In this document: positions 4,122 through 55,404 of the stretch, piece by piece
Layout of the letters: each line of letters begins with the position of its first letter
How positions within the stretch are numbered: position 1 is the stretch's first letter
NCBI GenBank assembly: GCA_949425575.1
Contig: CASPVX010000001.1
Coordinates: 10,789 to 74,788 of the forward strand
Direction: 5' to 3'
Source: an uncultured Bacilli bacterium
GTDB lineage: Bacteria; Bacillota_I; Bacilli_A; RF39; UBA660
DNA: 64,000 bases
Made by a program: the position numbers and the translations under genes
The notes under the pieces: generated by a model
The model's database searches: none
The model's input: the letters and a program-made list of their open reading frames with translations, nothing else
What the model was told of the DNA's origin: nothing

Positions 4122-5156
4122 TTATTCTAATACTAATTTTTTAGGTTCAGATGTTAAAACATCTAAATCTCCTGGAATAGAACCTGTAGCTACTAAAAAT
4201 TCTTTTCCATTTTCAGTAACTGGCATAATTAAAAATCTTTTTAGATTACCTTCTGGATCAGTTGCACCACTTATTCTGAATGCTTGATCAGAAATATCTT
4301 GGAATACTACCTTGCCATCTTGATATAAATCTCCATATCCTTTTTTTCTACAAAGTCCTTCAGACATAGAATCTTTATGATTTATTCTCAAATATATAAA
4401 ATCCATCCCTAATGGTGTTGCTGCTTCATTAATAAGCTCTACCAATTCACTACAAATTCCAAATCCACGATATTCAGGGTGAGTTGCTAATCCATATATA
4501 TATAGATTATTTAAGTTTGTAATTCCTTCGTGAAAATATGGTTTATGTTCATCTTCAACCTCATTCATAAGACCTGCATATCCCATTATTTGCCCTTTAT
4601 CATTATAACAAGCAATAGCCAATCCACCATTAATATATGCTTCAAATTCTTCCATTTTATCAACTACTGTTAATGGTTCTGCATATGGAGGTAATTTAAA
4701 TACATTAATAATATCAGCGAATTCATCAAAACTGGAAATAGTTTTTATAAAACCTTTAATTTCATCATTAGTACCTTTATGGTTGAAACTTACTACTATT
4801 GGATCCACGCCTAAAATATCTGTTGTATCTACTTTATATGCGTTAGGGTATAAACCATCATAAATTAATGCTTTTTCATAAACTCCAACGACTAAGTCAA
4901 TATATTTTTTTGTTTCTTGTTTAAGTGCTCCAGATTTTAATTCTTCAACAGCTTCTTCTAAACCGTTTTCTTTTATAAATTTTTTAATTCCTTCATCAGA
5001 GTCATCCTTTAATCCTTTTTCTTTTAAGAAATCTACAATTTGTATATTTGTAATTTCATTTTCTATATTATGTTTCTCAACAAAATTCATAATATCTTTT
5101 ATTTTATCATTATTTAATCCTTTTTCTTTTAATTGTTCTATAATTTGTTCTATCAT
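4122..5156 (-). CDS. two-domain protein with C-terminal GNAT acetyltransferase domain (possible short ArgA-like N-acetyltransferase)
   Basis: 344 aa. The C-terminal segment ..YIYGLATHPEYRGFGICSELVELI.. carries the GNAT motif A signature. The stop is followed by hairpin 4103-4120. The ORF overlaps the upstream M20 gene by 4 nt, indicating translational coupling. Confidence 0.55.
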   Translation of the reverse strand: MIEQIIEQLKEKGLNNDKIKDIMNFVEKHNIENEITNIQIVDFLKEKGLKDDSDEGIKKFIKENGLEEAVEELKSGALKQETKKYIDLVVGVYEKALIYDGLYPNAYKVDTTDILGVDPIVVSFNHKGTNDEIKGFIKTISSFDEFADIINVFKLPPYAEPLTVVDKMEEFEAYINGGLAIACYNDKGQIMGYAGLMNEVEDEHKPYFHEGITNLNNLYIYGLATHPEYRGFGICSELVELINEAATPLGMDFIYLRINHKDSMSEGLCRKKGYGDLYQDGKVVFQDISDQAFRISGATDPEGNLKRFLIMPVTENGKEFLVATGSIPGDLDVLTSEPKKLVLE

Positions 5157-6226
5157 TTTATCACTCCTTCTTTCAATACCTTTTTATAAATTTTATATAA
5201 ATCTAATAATGAATTTTTATTTACATATTCTTTTGGATGATGAGGGTAATCCCCTACTGGATTCATAAGCACTGTTGGAATCTTTTTATCAGAAAAATAT
5301 ATTGCATCTGATGTTGATTCACTTGCCACTATTTTAGGCATATGTCCTAAAACTTCTTCACATTTTTTCAAATACATTTGTATATTATCGTTATTAATAT
5401 CTGTAATAAAAGCACTACCACTAGCAACCACTTCAATTTCTAAAGCAGAATTAATTTTTTTAATTTCATTTATAATATCTTCCTTTTTTTCTGAAGCAAT
5501 ATGTCTTATATCTAAATACATCTCAGCATATCCAGGCACTTGATTTAAAGCATCTCCGCCAACTATTTTTGTTAGTGTTATAGATGTCTTATAATCATCA
5601 GAACTTTTAGGTGTTGGAAATTTTTCTATTATTTTTGTATAAACAGCAAATAAAGTTTCAATTGCATTAACACCATTATATGGTTGTGAAGCATGACATG
5701 TTTTAGTTTTTACTGATAGTTTTAATTGTAGTAACCCTTTTTCTTCACTTATAAGTTCAAAATTCTTTCCACCATCTGGCACAACTGCAAGTTTTATGTT
5801 TGGATATAATTCAACTAATTCTTTAGCACAGTTACCATCTATTTCTTCATCACTAGTTATAAATAAAGCTACTTTTTTATCCGTTTCTAATTCTTTAAAT
5901 AATGTTAAACAAACAGCAACTTGTCCCTTCATATCAATTGCCCCGCGTCCATATACATTTTCCATATCTTCTTCATATTTGTACTGTTCGCATGGTACAA
6001 CATCTATGTGTGTACAAAAAACAATGTCATAGTTTTCTTCTTCAGCATTTGAAATAACCAAAGAACCAAAACCATTAAATTCATGTTTTTTTATAAATAA
6101 ACCTTTTGGCATACTCATCTTTATTTCATCAAGTAACCGATTTGTTTTTTCCTTATCTTTAGATACTCCATCGAACTCTATTAAATATTTTAATAATTTT
6201 AATATTTCCTCTAATTTATTTTCCAT
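5153..6226 (-). CDS. M20 family metallopeptidase, ArgE/DapE-type deacetylase
   Basis: 357 aa with metal-ligand motifs HIDVVP, GRGAIDMKG and ITSDEEIDG characteristic of ArgE/DapE/CPG2 M20 enzymes. An RBS AAGAGAGGAA sits upstream of the ATG at 6226. Confidence 0.8.
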   Translation of the reverse strand: MENKLEEILKLLKYLIEFDGVSKDKEKTNRLLDEIKMSMPKGLFIKKHEFNGFGSLVISNAEEENYDIVFCTHIDVVPCEQYKYEEDMENVYGRGAIDMKGQVAVCLTLFKELETDKKVALFITSDEEIDGNCAKELVELYPNIKLAVVPDGGKNFELISEEKGLLQLKLSVKTKTCHASQPYNGVNAIETLFAVYTKIIEKFPTPKSSDDYKTSITLTKIVGGDALNQVPGYAEMYLDIRHIASEKKEDIINEIKKINSALEIEVVASGSAFITDINNDNIQMYLKKCEEVLGHMPKIVASESTSDAIYFSDKKIPTVLMNPVGDYPHHPKEYVNKNSLLDLYKIYKKVLKEGVIK

Positions 6227-6245
6227 ATAATTCCTCTCTTTTCAT

Positions 6246-6278
6246 AATAAAAACCTATGCTTATATATGCATAGGTTT
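6246..6278 (-). terminator. intrinsic terminator/attenuator hairpin immediately upstream of the M20 gene RBS
   Basis: On the minus strand the stem AAACCUAUGC, loop AUAUAUAA and stem GCAUAGGUUU are followed by a U-tract UUUUUAUUAUG. This places the terminator between a promoter and the gene start, as expected for an attenuator. Confidence 0.5.
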
Positions 6279-6369
6279 TATAATTTATCAAAATGAAATT
6301 ATTTCCCTCGCAGATACAAGCAACACAAATAGTACTTGCACCTACGATATTTTAATCGTTAAGCAAGTA

Positions 6370-6417
6370 CTAACTGAAGCGTCTGCGGTTGTTAACATTT
6401 ACTTGGAATAATTTCAT
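6370..6417 (-). other. putative leader peptide ORF (MKLFQVNVNNRRRFS) with three consecutive Arg codons
   Basis: A GGGAG RBS lies 7 nt upstream of the ATG. The 15-codon ORF contains CGC-AGA-CGC, and these Arg codons form the 5' arm of a long nested hairpin (94-172 nt from the promoter) that precedes terminator 6246-6278. Confidence 0.35.
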
Positions 6418-6447
6418 AATATCTCCCTTTCTTTTGCGTTGTTACAT

Positions 6448-6476
6448 AATTTACACTATATTTTTTATTTTGTCAA
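6448..6476 (-). promoter_or_regulatory. sigma-A type promoter for the leader/M20 operon
   Basis: On the minus strand, TTGACA is followed by 17 nt and then TGTAAATT (a TG-extended -10), starting 4 nt after the rlmD stop codon. Confidence 0.4.
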
Positions 6477-6479
6477 GTT

Positions 6480-7658
6480 TTAATTTTTCCTTTTTAGTTT
6501 TGTTATACTTTCAACATGATACGTATGTGGAAATAAATCCAAAGGTATTATTTCTTCCACAGTATAACCATCTTTAAATAAATTTATATCTCTTGCAAGT
6601 GTCATTGGATCACATGATACATATATAATTTCTTCTGGTTCAACATCTAAAATGTCTTTTATTGTTTTTTGTGAAAGACCCTTTCTTGGTGGATCAACCA
6701 CTATAATATCAGCTTTTTCTTTTAGCCCATTATCAAGATTTCCAACATAAAACTTACAATTTTCTATATTATTATTTTTAGTATTCTCCTTGGCATCCAT
6801 AACTGCCTTTTCGCTTATTTCAATTCCAATTACTTTTTTAAAATGCTTACTTAAAAATATGCCAATAGTTCCTGTACCACAATATAAATCGAGTAATGTT
6901 TTTGTTTTATCTTTAGTTATAATATCTTCTACTTTTTTATATAACTTAAATGCCATTTTTGTATTTACTTGAAAAAATGCCTTATCACTAACTAAAAAAT
7001 TAAAGTTGCCTAAATTAGCCTTTATTTTTTCTTGACCCAAAACAAGTTTGTCATCAATGTAAATACTAGAAACACCATTTAATTCTTTTATATCAATATT
7101 ACCTTTAAAACAAACCATAGTTTCATCAAATGATCTAATCATAACTTCAGAAACATTATTTAAATCCATTTTATTTATTTCTTTAATTATTTTATTTATC
7201 TTTTCATCTAATAATTCACATCTATCTATGCATATTAAATTATGAGAATCATTTTCACTATATGCCAGTTTTTCTTTTACCTTTAAAGTAACTTTATTTC
7301 GGTAATTATAAATATCATCACTAGGAATAATCTTTTTAACTACTTTTTCTAAATTTGTATATCTTTTAATTATATTTTTTATTTTTTCTTCTTTAAATTC
7401 AAGCTGTTTTTCATAAGGTACATGTTTTAAAGCACATCCACAATTTAAAATATTACACTTTGAATCTATTCTAAATGGACTTTTGTACTCAAAATCAACT
7501 ATTTCACCTTCCAAAAATTTCTTTTTTTCTTTTGTTATTTTAACAGTTACTTCTTCATTAATATAAGCATTTTTTACAAAAATTATTTTCCCCTCAACTC
7601 TACCGATTCCTCTACCTAAGTGATCAAGACCAGTTATTTTTACCAAAACATTATTCAT
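6480..7658 (-). CDS. rlmD: 23S rRNA (uracil-5-)-methyltransferase RlmD/RumA family (TRAM + SAM-dependent MTase)
   Basis: 392 aa with an N-terminal TRAM-like beta domain and Cys cluster (CNILNCGCALKH). SAM-binding DLYCGTGTIG and DPPRKG motifs are present. Confidence 0.8.
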   Translation of the reverse strand: MNNVLVKITGLDHLGRGIGRVEGKIIFVKNAYINEEVTVKITKEKKKFLEGEIVDFEYKSPFRIDSKCNILNCGCALKHVPYEKQLEFKEEKIKNIIKRYTNLEKVVKKIIPSDDIYNYRNKVTLKVKEKLAYSENDSHNLICIDRCELLDEKINKIIKEINKMDLNNVSEVMIRSFDETMVCFKGNIDIKELNGVSSIYIDDKLVLGQEKIKANLGNFNFLVSDKAFFQVNTKMAFKLYKKVEDIITKDKTKTLLDLYCGTGTIGIFLSKHFKKVIGIEISEKAVMDAKENTKNNNIENCKFYVGNLDNGLKEKADIIVVDPPRKGLSQKTIKDILDVEPEEIIYVSCDPMTLARDINLFKDGYTVEEIIPLDLFPHTYHVESITKLKRKN

Positions 7659-10339: not shown

Positions 10340-11430
10340 AAAAAATAAAATTAACCGAATATAATGCAATGATATGGTTTCTTTTAAGATCATCGCTTAT
10401 TGGAACTGGAGTTGCGATTATATTAAGTACTGGAAGACAAGATACTTATATAAGTGGTATTATTACTCTTATTTTAGGTCTTATTCCTATCCTACTTTTT
10501 AATAAGCTAAAAAAAATTGATCCTTCTAAAAATATTATTAAACTCAATACTGATTCTTTAGGGTCTTTTGGATATATTTTAAATATTTTTATGATGGTAG
10601 CTGTTTTTGCTTTTATATTTTTAATTTTTTGGAATTTAACAAATTTTATATCAACAGAATTTTTATATAAAACACCAAGGTTTTTTATCAGTATATGCTT
10701 TTTACTTCCTGTTTTATATGCAACATTTAAAGATTTTCATGTAGTAACTAAAGCAAGTTTAATTTCGTTTTATTTTATTATTGGTTTTGTTGTTTTTATA
10801 ATATTAGGATTAATAAAAGAAATTGATTTTGGAAATCTAATGCCAATTATGCAAACAGAACCTGGTAATATTTTAAAAGTTTCATTTATAATGCTTGTAT
10901 ATAATGTGTTACCAATTTTTCTTTTACTTATTGTTCCTGAAAATATGCTTCAAAAAGATTCATCTAAATCAACTATGATTTTTTACATAATAACATTTAT
11001 TTTTATAATCAATATATTTTTATTCATTATTGGATGTTTTTCAATAGAACTTTCTTTATTATATGATTATACAGAGTTTCATATTTTTAAAAGATTATCT
11101 ATTGGAACCTTTATTGATAAAATTGAAAGTTTCTTATCAATAGAATGGATTTTAGGAATGCTTTTAACAATTATTATTGGAATACATTATTTGAAAAAAT
11201 CATATATGCAGATGATGAAAAAGGATAAAAAACGAGGCAATATTTTTTGTATAATAATTTGTATAGTTTTAATTATTTTAGTTAATTACTCATTTAAAAA
11301 TTTAATACAAATTCAATCTTTTGTAGCAAATTATTTAGTTTATTTCTTATTCTTTGGATTATTTATATGTCCATTAATTACATATATTTTTACAAGAAAA
11401 AAGAGATCACATGAATCTCTTATAAACTAA
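10336..11430 (+). CDS. spore germination protein, GerAB family (B subunit, APC-like permease)
   Basis: 364 aa with about 10 transmembrane segments, overlapping the stop of the C subunit. A-C-B order. Confidence 0.75.
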   Translation: MKKIKLTEYNAMIWFLLRSSLIGTGVAIILSTGRQDTYISGIITLILGLIPILLFNKLKKIDPSKNIIKLNTDSLGSFGYILNIFMMVAVFAFIFLIFWNLTNFISTEFLYKTPRFFISICFLLPVLYATFKDFHVVTKASLISFYFIIGFVVFIILGLIKEIDFGNLMPIMQTEPGNILKVSFIMLVYNVLPIFLLLIVPENMLQKDSSKSTMIFYIITFIFIINIFLFIIGCFSIELSLLYDYTEFHIFKRLSIGTFIDKIESFLSIEWILGMLLTIIIGIHYLKKSYMQMMKKDKKRGNIFCIIICIVLIILVNYSFKNLIQIQSFVANYLVYFLFFGLFICPLITYIFTRKKRSHESLIN

Positions 11431-21381: not shown

Positions 21382-21455
21382 TGGTGCCGAATGTAAGAAT
21401 CGAACTTACATCTAATCATTACGAGTGACTTGTTTTACCACTAAACTAAATCGGC
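21382..21455 (-). tRNA. tRNA-Thr (anticodon CGU)
   Basis: The minus-strand sequence GCCGATTTAGTTTAGTGGTAAAACAAGTCACTCGTAATGATTAGATGTAAGTTCGATTCTTACATTCGGCACCA folds as a cloverleaf with a TTCGATT T-loop, anticodon loop CTCGTAA and an encoded CCA. There is one U-U mismatch in the acceptor stem. Confidence 0.7.
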
Positions 21456-21458
21456 ATT

Positions 21459-21532
21459 TGGTTGTCCCAGTAAGATTCGAACTTACGGTCGTGGAGCCAG
21501 AATCCACTGCCTTACCGCTTGGCCATGGGACA
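21459..21532 (-). tRNA. tRNA-Gln (anticodon CUG)
   Basis: TGTCCCATGGCCAAGCGGTAAGGCAGTGGATTCTGGCTCCACGACCGTAAGTTCGAATCTTACTGGGACAACCA has a perfect 7-bp acceptor stem with the U1-A72 pair typical of tRNA-Gln. The anticodon loop is TTCTGGC, the T-loop is TTCGAAT and CCA is encoded. Confidence 0.75.
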
Positions 21533-22102: not shown

Positions 22103-22458
22103 TGGTGGAGGCGACGAGAGTCGAACTCGTGTCCGAAAACATTTCCCCGAAAACCTCTACAAGCTTAGTTAATTGATAATTTCCTAATATTTAAAGCAAT
22201 TAACAACCAAAATATTAGTTAGCCTATTAATTTCACTAATAGTGCTAGGCAACACTATTAGCATATCCCACAAATGCGAGCCCTTTTATTTTCTGGTGGG
22301 AGCAAAAAACAAAGAGCAGCTTCGCTTTTTATTAGGCGAAAGCTAATGTGCCAAAATTGGCTTTTTCTTTTCCAGTTATATTTAACTTTGATATGTAACG
22401 TATATCATCCGGCTTGCAGTTTAAGCTTCCACATTCCCGTCGAAACCAAAGCGCCCCC
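22103..22458 (-). ncRNA. ssrA: tmRNA (SsrA), tag reading frame decoded as (A)GKEKANFGTLAFA-UAA-UAA
   Basis: The minus-strand 5' end is GGGGGCGCUUUGGUUUCGACGGGAAUGUGG and the 3' end is GAGUUCGACUCUCGUCGCCUCCACCA (tRNA-like domain). An internal ORF GGA AAA GAA AAA GCC AAU UUU GGC ACA UUA GCU UUC GCC UAA UAA is preceded by UAUAAC-U, as in the B. subtilis resume context. Confidence 0.85.
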
Positions 22459-55317: not shown

Positions 55318-55404
55318 TGGTGCTCGTATTCGGACTTGAACCGAAACTTCCAAAGGAAAATAGATTTTGAGTCTATCGCGTCTACCAATTTCGCCATACG
55401 AGCA
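55318..55404 (-). tRNA. tRNA-Leu (anticodon CAA), long variable arm
   Basis: The minus strand GCTCGTATGGCGAAATTGGTAGACGCGATAGACTCAAAATCTATTTTCCTTTGGAAGTTTCGGTTCAAGTCCGAATACGAGCACCA has anticodon loop CTCAAAA, a class II variable stem-loop, T-loop TTCAAGT and an encoded CCA. Confidence 0.85.

Follow-up and report, generated by a model that had tools for sequence, protein, structure and literature searches.

In a 64,000-nucleotide stretch of contig CASPVX010000001.1 from an uncultured Bacilli bacterium (positions 10,789 to 74,788 of the contig; hereafter the window), a 253-nt gap on the minus strand separates an rlmD-type methyltransferase gene from a gene for an M20 metallohydrolase, which is followed by a gene for a GNAT-family acetyltransferase. 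Here we report that this gap is filled by a leader composed of a promoter, a short open reading frame (ORF) with three consecutive arginine codons, a set of overlapping RNA helices and an intrinsic terminator, and we describe its parts, their conservation, the covariation of four helices, the spacing of the ORF relative to these helices and the state-dependent folds, all computed in silico. A first-pass annotation of the window had claimed this layout for a candidate arginine attenuator, and every element of it was found on the minus strand: a TTGACA promoter with a 17-nt spacer directly after the rlmD stop codon, a ribosome-binding site and 15-codon ORF carrying CGC AGA CGC (6430-6370), a nested hairpin with the Arg codons in its 5' arm, now predicted by folding, and an intrinsic terminator ahead of the M20 gene (6279-6249). 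The features are listed here in order of transcription.

6480-7658, minus strand: rlmD-type methyltransferase gene (TIGR00479 at 1.2e-84), stop codon TAA at 6482-6480
6448-6476, minus strand: sigma-A-type promoter, -35 element TTGACA at 6476-6471, 17-nt spacer, -10 element TAAATT at 6453-6448
6423-6430, minus strand: Shine-Dalgarno (SD) sequence of the leader ORF, AAAGGGAG, 5 nt upstream of the ATG
6370-6417, minus strand: leader ORF MKLFQVNVNNRRRFS with stop codon TAG, 15 codons
6405-6417, minus strand: 5' arm of helix P0, AUGAAAUUAUUCC, at the start of the leader ORF, pairing with 6306-6293 in minimum free energy (MFE) folds
6379-6387, minus strand: putative sensor Arg codons CGC AGA CGC, of which CGCAGA is the 5' arm of helix P1 (partner UCUGCG at 6314-6309)
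6363-6372, minus strand: segment 1, UAGUACUUGC, 5' arm of helix P2, starting at the leader stop codon
6344-6359, minus strand: apical hairpin P3, ACGAU-UAAAAU-AUCGU, from MFE folds
6330-6346, minus strand: segment 2, CGUAGGUGCAAGUACUA, partner of segment 1 (P2) or of segment 3 (the 2:3 hairpin, a putative anti-antiterminator)
6305-6322, minus strand: segment 3, UGCUUGUAUCUGCGAGGG, the putative switch strand, partner of the Arg codons (P1), of segment 2 and of the terminator 5' half
6293-6306, minus strand: 3' arm of P0, GGAAAUAAUUUCAU, from MFE folds
6249-6279, minus strand: intrinsic terminator with flanking A residues, hairpin plus U5 at 6275-6249; 5' arm CCUAUGC at 6275-6269, loop AUAUAUAA at 6268-6261, 3' arm GCAUAGG at 6260-6254, U-tract at 6253-6249
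6258-6275, minus strand: 3' strand of the predicted antiterminator (terminator positions 6275-6258)
5153-6226, minus strand: M20 gene with its own SD sequence, ATG at 6226, first gene of the putatively regulated operon
4122-5156, minus strand: GNAT gene, second gene of that operon, sharing a 4-nt ATGA overlap with the M20 stop codon

The promoter matches the consensus at 10 of 12 positions. The 219-nt leader has an MFE of -56 kcal/mol, against -37 +/- 4 kcal/mol in shuffled sequences (z = -4.7), and is predicted to form a nested hairpin in which CGCAGA/UCUGCG encloses UAGUACUUGC/GCAAGUACUA, which in turn encloses ACGAU/AUCGU. One terminator-like site was found, compared with 0.1 expected. The arrangement exceeds what chance would be expected to produce: within the 64-kb window the leader ORF is the sole SD-preceded ORF of at most 40 codons to contain three consecutive arginines (RRR). 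Arginine accounts for 3.0% of the codons in the genes of the window, with AGA making up 71% and CGC 1.2% of the Arg codons; because CGC is so rare, its occurrence twice among 15 leader codons is unusual.

Conservation of the leader in uncultured gut Bacilli

An alignment-based scan with the M20 protein yielded 80 loci (given L numbers below), and the 450 nt upstream of each ortholog were inspected. Close M20 relatives occur only in metagenome-assembled genomes (MAGs) of uncultured gut "Bacilli/Tenericutes", such as Candidatus Faecimonas and Coprovivens, which we take to be RF39-like. About 60 orthologous leaders share the same plan. Nearly every ortholog is preceded, 100-230 nt ahead of the gene, by a short ORF with RRR, RRRR or a longer run, and an SD sequence stands ahead of this ORF in nearly all of them. 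The promoter is kept ahead of the leader in 35 of 44 orthologous loci (TTGACA or TTGCAA, 17-18 nt, TAnnnT), and a terminator hairpin with its U-tract lies 10-60 nt ahead of the gene in nearly all loci.

The Arg run is the constant feature of the encoded peptides. It is present in all 47 aligned leaders, 46 of which have at least three consecutive Arg codons and one of which has RR, so that the short ORF and its Arg codons, which the first-pass annotation had asked to see in related genomes, are indeed retained. Run lengths are three (25 leaders), four (18), five (2), six (1) and two (1), and the codons used are AGA (71), CGT (44), CGC (42), CGA (7) and CGG (1). A covariance model of the leader added about 16 further leaders with a short ORF and an Arg run. 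The Arg codons are exchanged both synonymously and in order (CGY-AGA-CGY, AGA-CGC-CGC, CGA-AGA-AGA-CGU and others), and the SD sequence, ATG, reading frame and stop codon are all conserved while ORF length ranges from 12 to 21 codons, with the length differences in frame. Outside the Arg run the peptides diverge (for example MKLFQTNNRRRLS, MKNTIILIRRRRY, MNHIYSLNIRRRRRRVLV and MKKIINLSLRRRLKHTLGEKR), and the residues flanking the run differ by subfamily (NNRRRFS, LIRRRRY, NIRRRRRRVLV and LSLRRRLKHTLGEKR). By our reading, the run is kept in L018, L029, L033 and L042 even though it apparently lies outside P1 in these leaders. Retention outside P1, together with the synonymous and permuted changes, points to selection at the level of translation, and the pattern has the signature expected of a regulatory leader peptide, in which the amino acid and not the peptide appears to be selected.

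The same covariance model (R1) matched the window leader at 132 bits and recovered the leader 62 more times across the first set of loci. It gave no second copy in the 64-kb window, nor, over some 1.3 Mb of fetched loci, any copy outside the M20/GNAT operon. The M20-GNAT pair is kept throughout the clade and is syntenic in most orthologous loci in either order; in L020, L024 and L030-L032 the order is leader-GNAT-M20, with the leader still ahead of the pair. The leader also stays with the operon when the upstream gene is a different one. At a Candidatus Faecimonas locus (L081:3337-8071), a leader-M20-GNAT unit splits the t6A tRNA-modification genes (tsaE-tsaB-rimI on one side and tsaD on the other), in a place where the window has rlmD as upstream neighbour, and this difference indicates that leader, M20 and GNAT move as a cassette.

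Two complete leaders lie in tandem in eight loci (L019, L021, L037, L039, L040, L047, L087 and L145). Ahead of a single M20 gene, the two follow each other in the same orientation at a spacing of about 175 nt, and each has an SD sequence, an RRR ORF and a terminator of its own (L039:5620-5790 and 5795-5965, for instance). By analogy with tandem riboswitches, such a doubling should sharpen the response.

A strict-pattern scan of metagenomes returned 85 stretches, with true leaders in 13 loci only: ten ahead of M20 orthologs, one in L117 and two on variant scaffolds (L122 and L095) that are considered below. Nine other matches were inspected, of which four came from one coding sequence of an organism that is common in the gut, and the others appeared to be chance matches; many of the remaining matches share the 70-nt match length of that coding sequence. 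A scan of viral contigs returned one stretch, which is not a leader.

Mutually exclusive helices and the position of the ribosome

Covariation was examined in a MAFFT alignment of 47 sequences that was not fitted to any structure (A2) and in 63 sequences aligned with a covariance model of the OFF structure (A3). In the MFE folds and in A2, the segments follow one another in the same order: leader ORF, segment 1, P3, segment 2, segment 3, the 3' strand of P0, and the terminator. Segment 1 reads AGUACUUG or ACACUUG and lies at or just after the leader stop codon; the consensus of segment 2 is (GU)AGAURCAAGU.. and that of segment 3 is GCUUGUAUCUGCG... A hairpin occupies the P3 position in most orthologs with variable sequence, and the 3' strand of P0 pairs back to the start of the leader ORF; an equivalent outer helix occurs in most orthologous folds, in a region that aligns poorly.

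Four helices are supported by covariation: the terminator, the stem between segments 1 and 2, the 2:3 hairpin and a new antiterminator. The terminator stem is 99.5% paired with compensatory changes in 8 of 9 pairs (A2). The core of P2 (1:2) is 93% paired, 6 of its 8 pairs showing compensatory changes (AU 20/GC 18 and CG 27/UA 18; A2), and P1 is 82% paired across orthologs, the wobble position of the first Arg codon (Arg1) and its segment-3 partner being UA in 13, CG in 11 and UG in 10 sequences (A2). The combined covariation score of terminator, P2 and P1 was reached by none of 500 shuffles. The 2:3 hairpin is 92.7% paired in A2 and 93.0% in A3, with compensatory changes in 8 of 12 pairs and a score likewise reached by 0 of 500 shuffles; it is also the consensus structure that RNAalifold returned unaided. 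The antiterminator, formed by segment 3 with the 5' arm and loop of the terminator, is 83% paired with 6 of 13 pairs compensatory in A2, and 82.2% paired in A3. One of its pairs is split almost evenly (GC 21/AU 20 in A2; GC 30/AU 24 in A3), and the segment-3 column of this pair finds a pairing C or U in two further places, the wobble position of the Arg codon and segment 2.

The terminator loop is unusually conserved (AUACAAGC, ..CCUAUGCAUAUACAAGCAUAGG..) and complementary to segment 3. The reverse complement of segment 3 occurs three times in the leader, in the Arg codons (AUCGCAGA), in segment 2 (AUCGUAGAUGCAAGUA) and in the 5' arm and loop of the terminator (CCUAUGCAUAUACAAGCA), which apparently explains the conservation of the loop and identifies segment 3 as a switch strand with three rival partners. 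The alignment of orthologous leaders thus supplies, through segment 3, the clean mutually exclusive model that the first-pass annotation could not derive by eye.

The antiterminator offered in that annotation, CGUAGGU:ACCUAUG, was rejected on covariation. It is 75-77% paired, its central pair is unpaired in 43 of 47 sequences (A2) and 59 of 63 (A3), and its covariation is no better than that of shuffles on A2 (score reached by 170 of 500) and marginal on A3 (19 of 500). This pairing is peculiar to the window sequence and not conserved.

The terminator hairpin at 6249-6279 lies between an A-tract and a U-tract, and the terminator scan reported it on the plus strand only. With these flanks it looks like a terminator on both strands, and it could also halt convergent transcripts on the plus strand.

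The first Arg codon keeps a constant distance from segment 1. In all 47 leaders segment 1 begins 16-24 nt (median 18) downstream of Arg1, a distance that just exceeds the roughly 13 nt covered by a ribosome downstream of its A site. The stop codon falls anywhere from 5 nt before to 19 nt after the first nucleotide of segment 1, which means that a ribosome terminating there always covers this segment. We folded transcripts truncated just before the 3' arm of the terminator, the point at which the switch would be decided, with a 28-nt ribosome footprint forced to be single-stranded; a metric asking whether the terminator 5' arm paired with anything proved too noisy and was replaced by the specific antiterminator pairs. 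The predicted probability of the antiterminator in each state was as follows.

Arg1 in the A site: 0.93 (median of all leaders), 0.92 (window leader)
Arg2 in the A site: 0.93 (median), 0.92 (window leader)
Arg3 in the A site: 0.78 (median), 0.50 (window leader)
Ribosome at the stop codon: 0.05 (median), 0.00 (window leader)
No ribosome: 0.23 (median), 0.89 (window leader)

A ribosome at the stop codon leaves the 2:3 hairpin as the predicted fold.

Based on these observations, we suggest that the element is probably a ribosome-mediated attenuator that senses charged tRNA-Arg and induces the M20/GNAT operon when arginine is limiting. We infer the stalling of the ribosome, the direction of regulation and the kinetic order of folding from the modelled states, and the switch may be pictured as follows. 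When arginine is plentiful, a ribosome at the stop codon would mask segment 1 and segment 2 would capture segment 3; after release of the ribosome, the whole P0/P1/P2 fold would hold segment 3 instead. Sequestered either way, segment 3 would leave the terminator free to form, and transcription would end at 6253-6249. When arginine is scarce, the ribosome would stall with Arg1 or Arg2 in its A site, blocking P0 and P1 while leaving segment 1 free, since segment 1 begins 16-24 nt downstream. Free segment 1 would lock segment 2 in stem P2, and segment 3, remaining single-stranded, would capture the 5' half of the terminator during its emergence. This would leave the terminator 3' arm with nothing to pair with, and RNA polymerase would read through into the M20/GNAT operon.

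Several observations weigh against this interpretation. The covariation counts are inflated by the relatedness of the sequences, and are accordingly supportive of the four helices rather than proof of them. The register of the antiterminator varies by subfamily and its weakest pair is unpaired in most sequences; because of these register shifts, an alignment-free swap test was added, in which segment 3 paired with its own terminator half at a mean of -16.9 kcal/mol and with non-cognate halves at -12.6 kcal/mol, a gap of 4.3 kcal/mol, with the cognate value reached by 0 of 5000 permutations, in support of the antiterminator. The antiterminator pairs scored in the truncated folds were defined from the stalled-state MFE and are therefore partly circular. 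Folding with ribosome footprints gave a divided answer: the truncated folds depend on the state of the ribosome as the attenuator would require, but full-length folds at equilibrium give the terminator in every state (probability 1.00 for the window leader, stalled or not), so the ON state must rest on co-transcriptional kinetics, as is usual for attenuators. The ribosome-free truncated RNA of the window leader (0.89) and of its closest relatives favours the antiterminator, and OFF would thus require that a ribosome sit at the stop codon or that P1 and P0 trap the RNA kinetically. Neither the family models nor the sequence searches link the M20 or the GNAT protein to arginine, and no arg genes lie near leader-M20-GNAT in the Faecimonas neighbourhood. 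Finally, transcription in Bacillus subtilis, and possibly in many bacteria, is of the runaway type, with polymerase outpacing the ribosome (PMC7858274), a situation that would disfavour ribosome-mediated attenuation unless the polymerase pauses.

An arginine T-box in series and competing explanations

In five of the orthologous loci, RF00230 matches at 98-121 bits (gathering score 93) place a T-box between the promoter and the leader. T-box and leader together occupy the following coordinates.

L055:5570-5992: T-box at 5611-5790, leader at 5807-5971
L025:3260-3622: T-box and leader
L028:121-484: T-box and leader
L041:5622-5975: T-box and leader
L038:5627-5987: T-box and leader

We take the specifier to be the triplet that follows GAA in the specifier loop and precedes the conserved purine, following T-box anatomy; in the three alignments examined (L055, L028 and L041), the triplet in this position is CGC. 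The order in L055 is promoter, T-box, T-box terminator, leader SD sequence immediately after, and finally M20, the U-tract of the T-box terminator running straight into the leader SD sequence. The presence of an Arg T-box on the same operon supports both the assignment to arginine and induction on starvation, and its sequence would tie the M20 operon to tRNA-Arg charging independently of the leader. To our knowledge, a T-box followed by a leader-peptide attenuator has not been described before. The conserved Arg run, the covarying exclusive helices and the Arg T-box in series in five loci all support leader-peptide attenuation, the reading first proposed for the window.

The window leader is itself distinct from a T-box. 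There was no RF00230 match in the window at the gathering threshold, nor in 6100-6600 at E values up to 10, and the hallmarks are absent, there being no Stem I with a specifier loop and no T-box sequence AGGGUGGUACCGCG. The first-pass annotation had also named a match to a known riboswitch model as grounds for abandoning its proposal; the leader matched no Rfam family at gathering or permissive thresholds, including the amino-acid leaders His_leader, Leu_leader, Thr_leader, Trp_leader and the Leu/Phe leader. Two sub-threshold matches at 6241-6406 (minus strand), to the trpB motif (29 bits vs 59) and to L10_leader (25 vs 44), span the terminator hairpin, are probably driven by it, and are regarded as chance.

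Of the other explanations, a ligand-sensing arrest peptide keeps the most ground, and we consider it unlikely. Here the RRR peptide, together with a small molecule such as arginine or ornithine, would arrest the ribosome, and induction would follow from high ligand. The peptide of Salmonella orf34 (SpeFL) was, reportedly, later shown to sense ornithine. Its two Arg codons had first been read as sensors of arginine starvation (PMC6386406), a precedent for such a reassignment, and arrest at the same site would select the same RNA fold. Against this, the leader peptides of 12-21 residues share little outside the Arg run, and their flanks vary by subfamily. Known arrest peptides require conserved sequence, and a conserved sequence of the kind found in SpeFL, TnaC and fungal AAP is absent here, only the Arg run being common to the subfamilies. 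Moreover, the Arg T-box responds to uncharged tRNA-Arg, so arrest at high arginine would set the two switches against each other.

It is more doubtful still that the attenuator works with inverse logic, a stalled ribosome or a queue of ribosomes covering segment 1 so that the terminator forms on starvation and the operon is expressed only when arginine is plentiful. The footprint of a ribosome with Arg3 in its A site does reach segment 1, which lowers the antiterminator probability to the values given above (0.78 median, 0.50 in the window), and the window leader without a ribosome favours the antiterminator. Starved ribosomes, however, stall at the first hungry codon, at which the antiterminator probability is at its 0.93 median; the conserved spacing of 16-24 nt places segment 1 just past the footprint of such a ribosome; the ribosome at the stop codon, the arginine-replete state, yields the antiterminator at only 0.05; and the Arg T-box in series implies induction on starvation.

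We regard it as very improbable that a protein or metabolite reads the leader as a structured RNA switch, with the ORF and its Arg codons arising as a by-product of P1 pairing. CGCAGA does pair with UCUGCG, and the conservation of these codons may be partly structural in a leader that is as highly structured as its z score indicates. Such a switch does not account for the conserved SD sequence, ATG, frame and stop codon, for indels that stay in frame, for Arg codons that are permuted and synonymously exchanged or, by our reading, for codons kept outside P1, and the leader has neither an Rfam match nor an evident conserved unpaired pocket in the alignment.

The least probable alternative is a general sensor of translation stress or antibiotics of the ermC/vmlR type controlling a resistance acetyltransferase, for although leader ORF and terminator are laid out as in antibiotic-inducible attenuators (for example PMC9226507) and aminoglycoside acetyltransferases come out as the best solved-structure matches of the GNAT protein, this similarity is marginal and common to the fold as such, the conserved leader feature is an Arg run and not an arrest motif, the partner gene encodes an M20 hydrolase, and an Arg T-box stands in series with the leader.

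The classical examples of leader-peptide attenuation, a textbook mechanism, are those for Trp, His, Leu, Thr, Ile/Val and Phe. Like trpL, hisL, leuL, thrL, ilvL and pheL of Escherichia coli and Salmonella, the proposed attenuator would combine a short leader ORF, in which codons for a single amino acid stand in a row, with alternative hairpins and, ahead of the first structural gene, an intrinsic terminator, and a stalled ribosome would select the antiterminator. It differs from them in that the regulatory amino acid is arginine, the regulated enzymes belong to no recognised arginine pathway, the host is a Bacilli lineage and the leader matches no Rfam leader family. In trp, the stalled ribosome masks segment 1; here, a stall would leave the 1:2 stem intact, and a further layer is added in that the stalled ribosome would free the switch strand by occupying its partner, the Arg codons.

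The first-pass annotation considered attenuation essentially undocumented for arginine, and this agrees with the literature searched, where only two bacterial cases, speF orf34 and rbfL, came to light, both without an intrinsic-terminator switch. In Salmonella speF, consecutive Arg codons in orf34 are reported to couple ribosome speed and mRNA folding; there the two Arg codons sit within a conserved 34-residue peptide, in contrast to the window leader and its orthologs, in which the Arg run alone is conserved, and the outputs in that gammaproteobacterial system are Rho-dependent termination, unmasking of the ribosome-binding site and RNase G decay, not an intrinsic terminator (PMC6386406). The rbfL peptide of Staphylococcus aureus (MVLKYRKR) is, like the proposed leader, a Bacillota leader peptide sensing arginine limitation by pausing at Arg codons, but its Arg codons are not consecutive, and it acts translationally, by occluding the rbf ribosome-binding site and repressing on starvation, with no terminator/antiterminator switch (PMC13009471). 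In the literature searched, mostly outside subscription journals, we found no Arg-codon attenuator with an intrinsic terminator, and an earlier description is possible.

Arg T-boxes resemble the proposed attenuator in reading tRNA-Arg charging through an antiterminator/terminator decision, but they bind the tRNA directly, whereas the window leader would sense it through the translating ribosome. In a comparative study, the arginine genes of Firmicutes were found to be regulated by T-boxes rather than by attenuation (PMC1262725). Leader peptides of the same kind are known from the same phylum, upstream of the hisS/hisZ paralogs in bacilli (PMC2965389) and of ilv-leu in S. aureus (PMC13009471); these serve other amino acids, are unrelated in sequence and precede bona fide biosynthetic or synthetase genes. 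Naville and Gautheret stated in 2010 that no amino-acid-specific leader-peptide system had been known outside Proteobacteria and Actinobacteria before their own bacilli His leader (PMC2965389).

An Arg-codon attenuator with an intrinsic terminator, conserved across an uncultured lineage of gut Bacilli, would add arginine to the list of amino acids sensed in this way. In light of the runaway transcription reported for B. subtilis (PMC7858274), a ribosome-coupled switch in a Bacilli lineage would be noteworthy, as it would operate where relatives reportedly transcribe ahead of their ribosomes. The design is compact, one switch strand facing three decoys, with versions in tandem or linked to a T-box, and could serve synthetic biology.

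The putatively regulated enzymes, variant scaffolds and other features of the window

The first-pass annotation called the first gene an ArgE/DapE-type deacetylase, a name that stands at the level of the family (Pfam PF01546 and PF07687) and goes no further, all specific NCBIfam models falling below their cut-offs; the closest solved structure, 2rb7, is an uncharacterised M20 protein. The second protein belongs to Pfam PF00583, and its best matches among solved structures, aminoglycoside acetyltransferases, have E values of about 0.002-0.003, marginal and generic to the GNAT fold. Searches of Pfam, NCBIfam and PDB sequences, along with two large homolog searches, returned only family-level names for both. 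PADLOC and resistance models were uninformative, their single match being ArsN1 at 20 bits against a cut-off of 170. The ATGA overlap indicates that GNAT is translationally coupled to M20.

The GNAT protein is 344 residues long. Most of its homologs have 213-230 residues and match only the C-terminal 56-67% or so, and the Lys/Glu-rich N-terminal part of about 115-150 residues is common only to its closest relatives (99% and 72% identical).

Judged by the leader, the M20 hydrolase and the GNAT acetyltransferase would be made when arginine runs out, which offers a lead on these orphan enzymes, common in RF39-like bacteria of the human gut. The pair might serve arginine supply, for instance through the release of Arg or ornithine that is acylated or bound in peptides.

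Two of the metagenome leaders carry a different codon at the sensor position. L122:7844-8020 (plus strand, 80 bits) and L095:8393-8562 (minus strand, 61 bits) are full-length matches to the leader model and have an SD sequence, an ORF, segments 1-3 and a terminator that differs but co-varies. Their peptides are MFNIIARLHSHNNLHLLIRH and MFNYYMVDHHNSLHLFNRH, with CAU AGU CAU or CAU CAU (His) where the Arg codons would be. Downstream of L122 lie small proteins with no assigned function and a SLOG-family protein, not M20; nothing clear follows in L095. As judged from their codons, these may represent the same scaffold retargeted to another amino acid.

These variants, the T-box pairs and the orphan enzymes can be joined in a broader reading, which we put forward tentatively, of a reprogrammable attenuator family in RF39-like Bacilli, a T-box/leader gate and an M20/GNAT route of arginine salvage. 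In its first part, the four-segment scaffold may be retargeted by exchange of the sensor codons, much as T-boxes exchange their specifier codon. In its second, T-box and leader may form a two-sensor gate, one sensing uncharged tRNA and the other the lack of charged tRNA at the ribosome; the isoacceptors read by the two may not be the same, with CGC as the T-box specifier and AGA plus CGY as the leader codons. It would follow that M20 and GNAT, an orphan pair so far, form a hitherto unrecognised route of arginine salvage in arginine-auxotrophic gut bacteria.

The remaining metagenome leader outside the M20 orthologs, at L117:1548-1735 (minus strand), is a typical Arg leader (MKIFMTNIIRRRRLRRHLRTR, 131 bits) with no M20 gene downstream. 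It is followed by two Gln/Glu-rich proteins of 298 and more than 197 residues without a Pfam match. Either the locus has been rearranged, or the leader has a second kind of target.

No tRNA-Arg gene was found within the 64-kb window. The window does contain a tmRNA gene (188 bits, tag peptide GKEKANFGTLAFA), which adjoins the genes for tRNA-Thr(CGU) and tRNA-Gln(CUG), with tRNA-Leu(CAA) further along; the coordinates of these entries are 22103-22458, 21382-21532 and 55318-55403, all on the minus strand.

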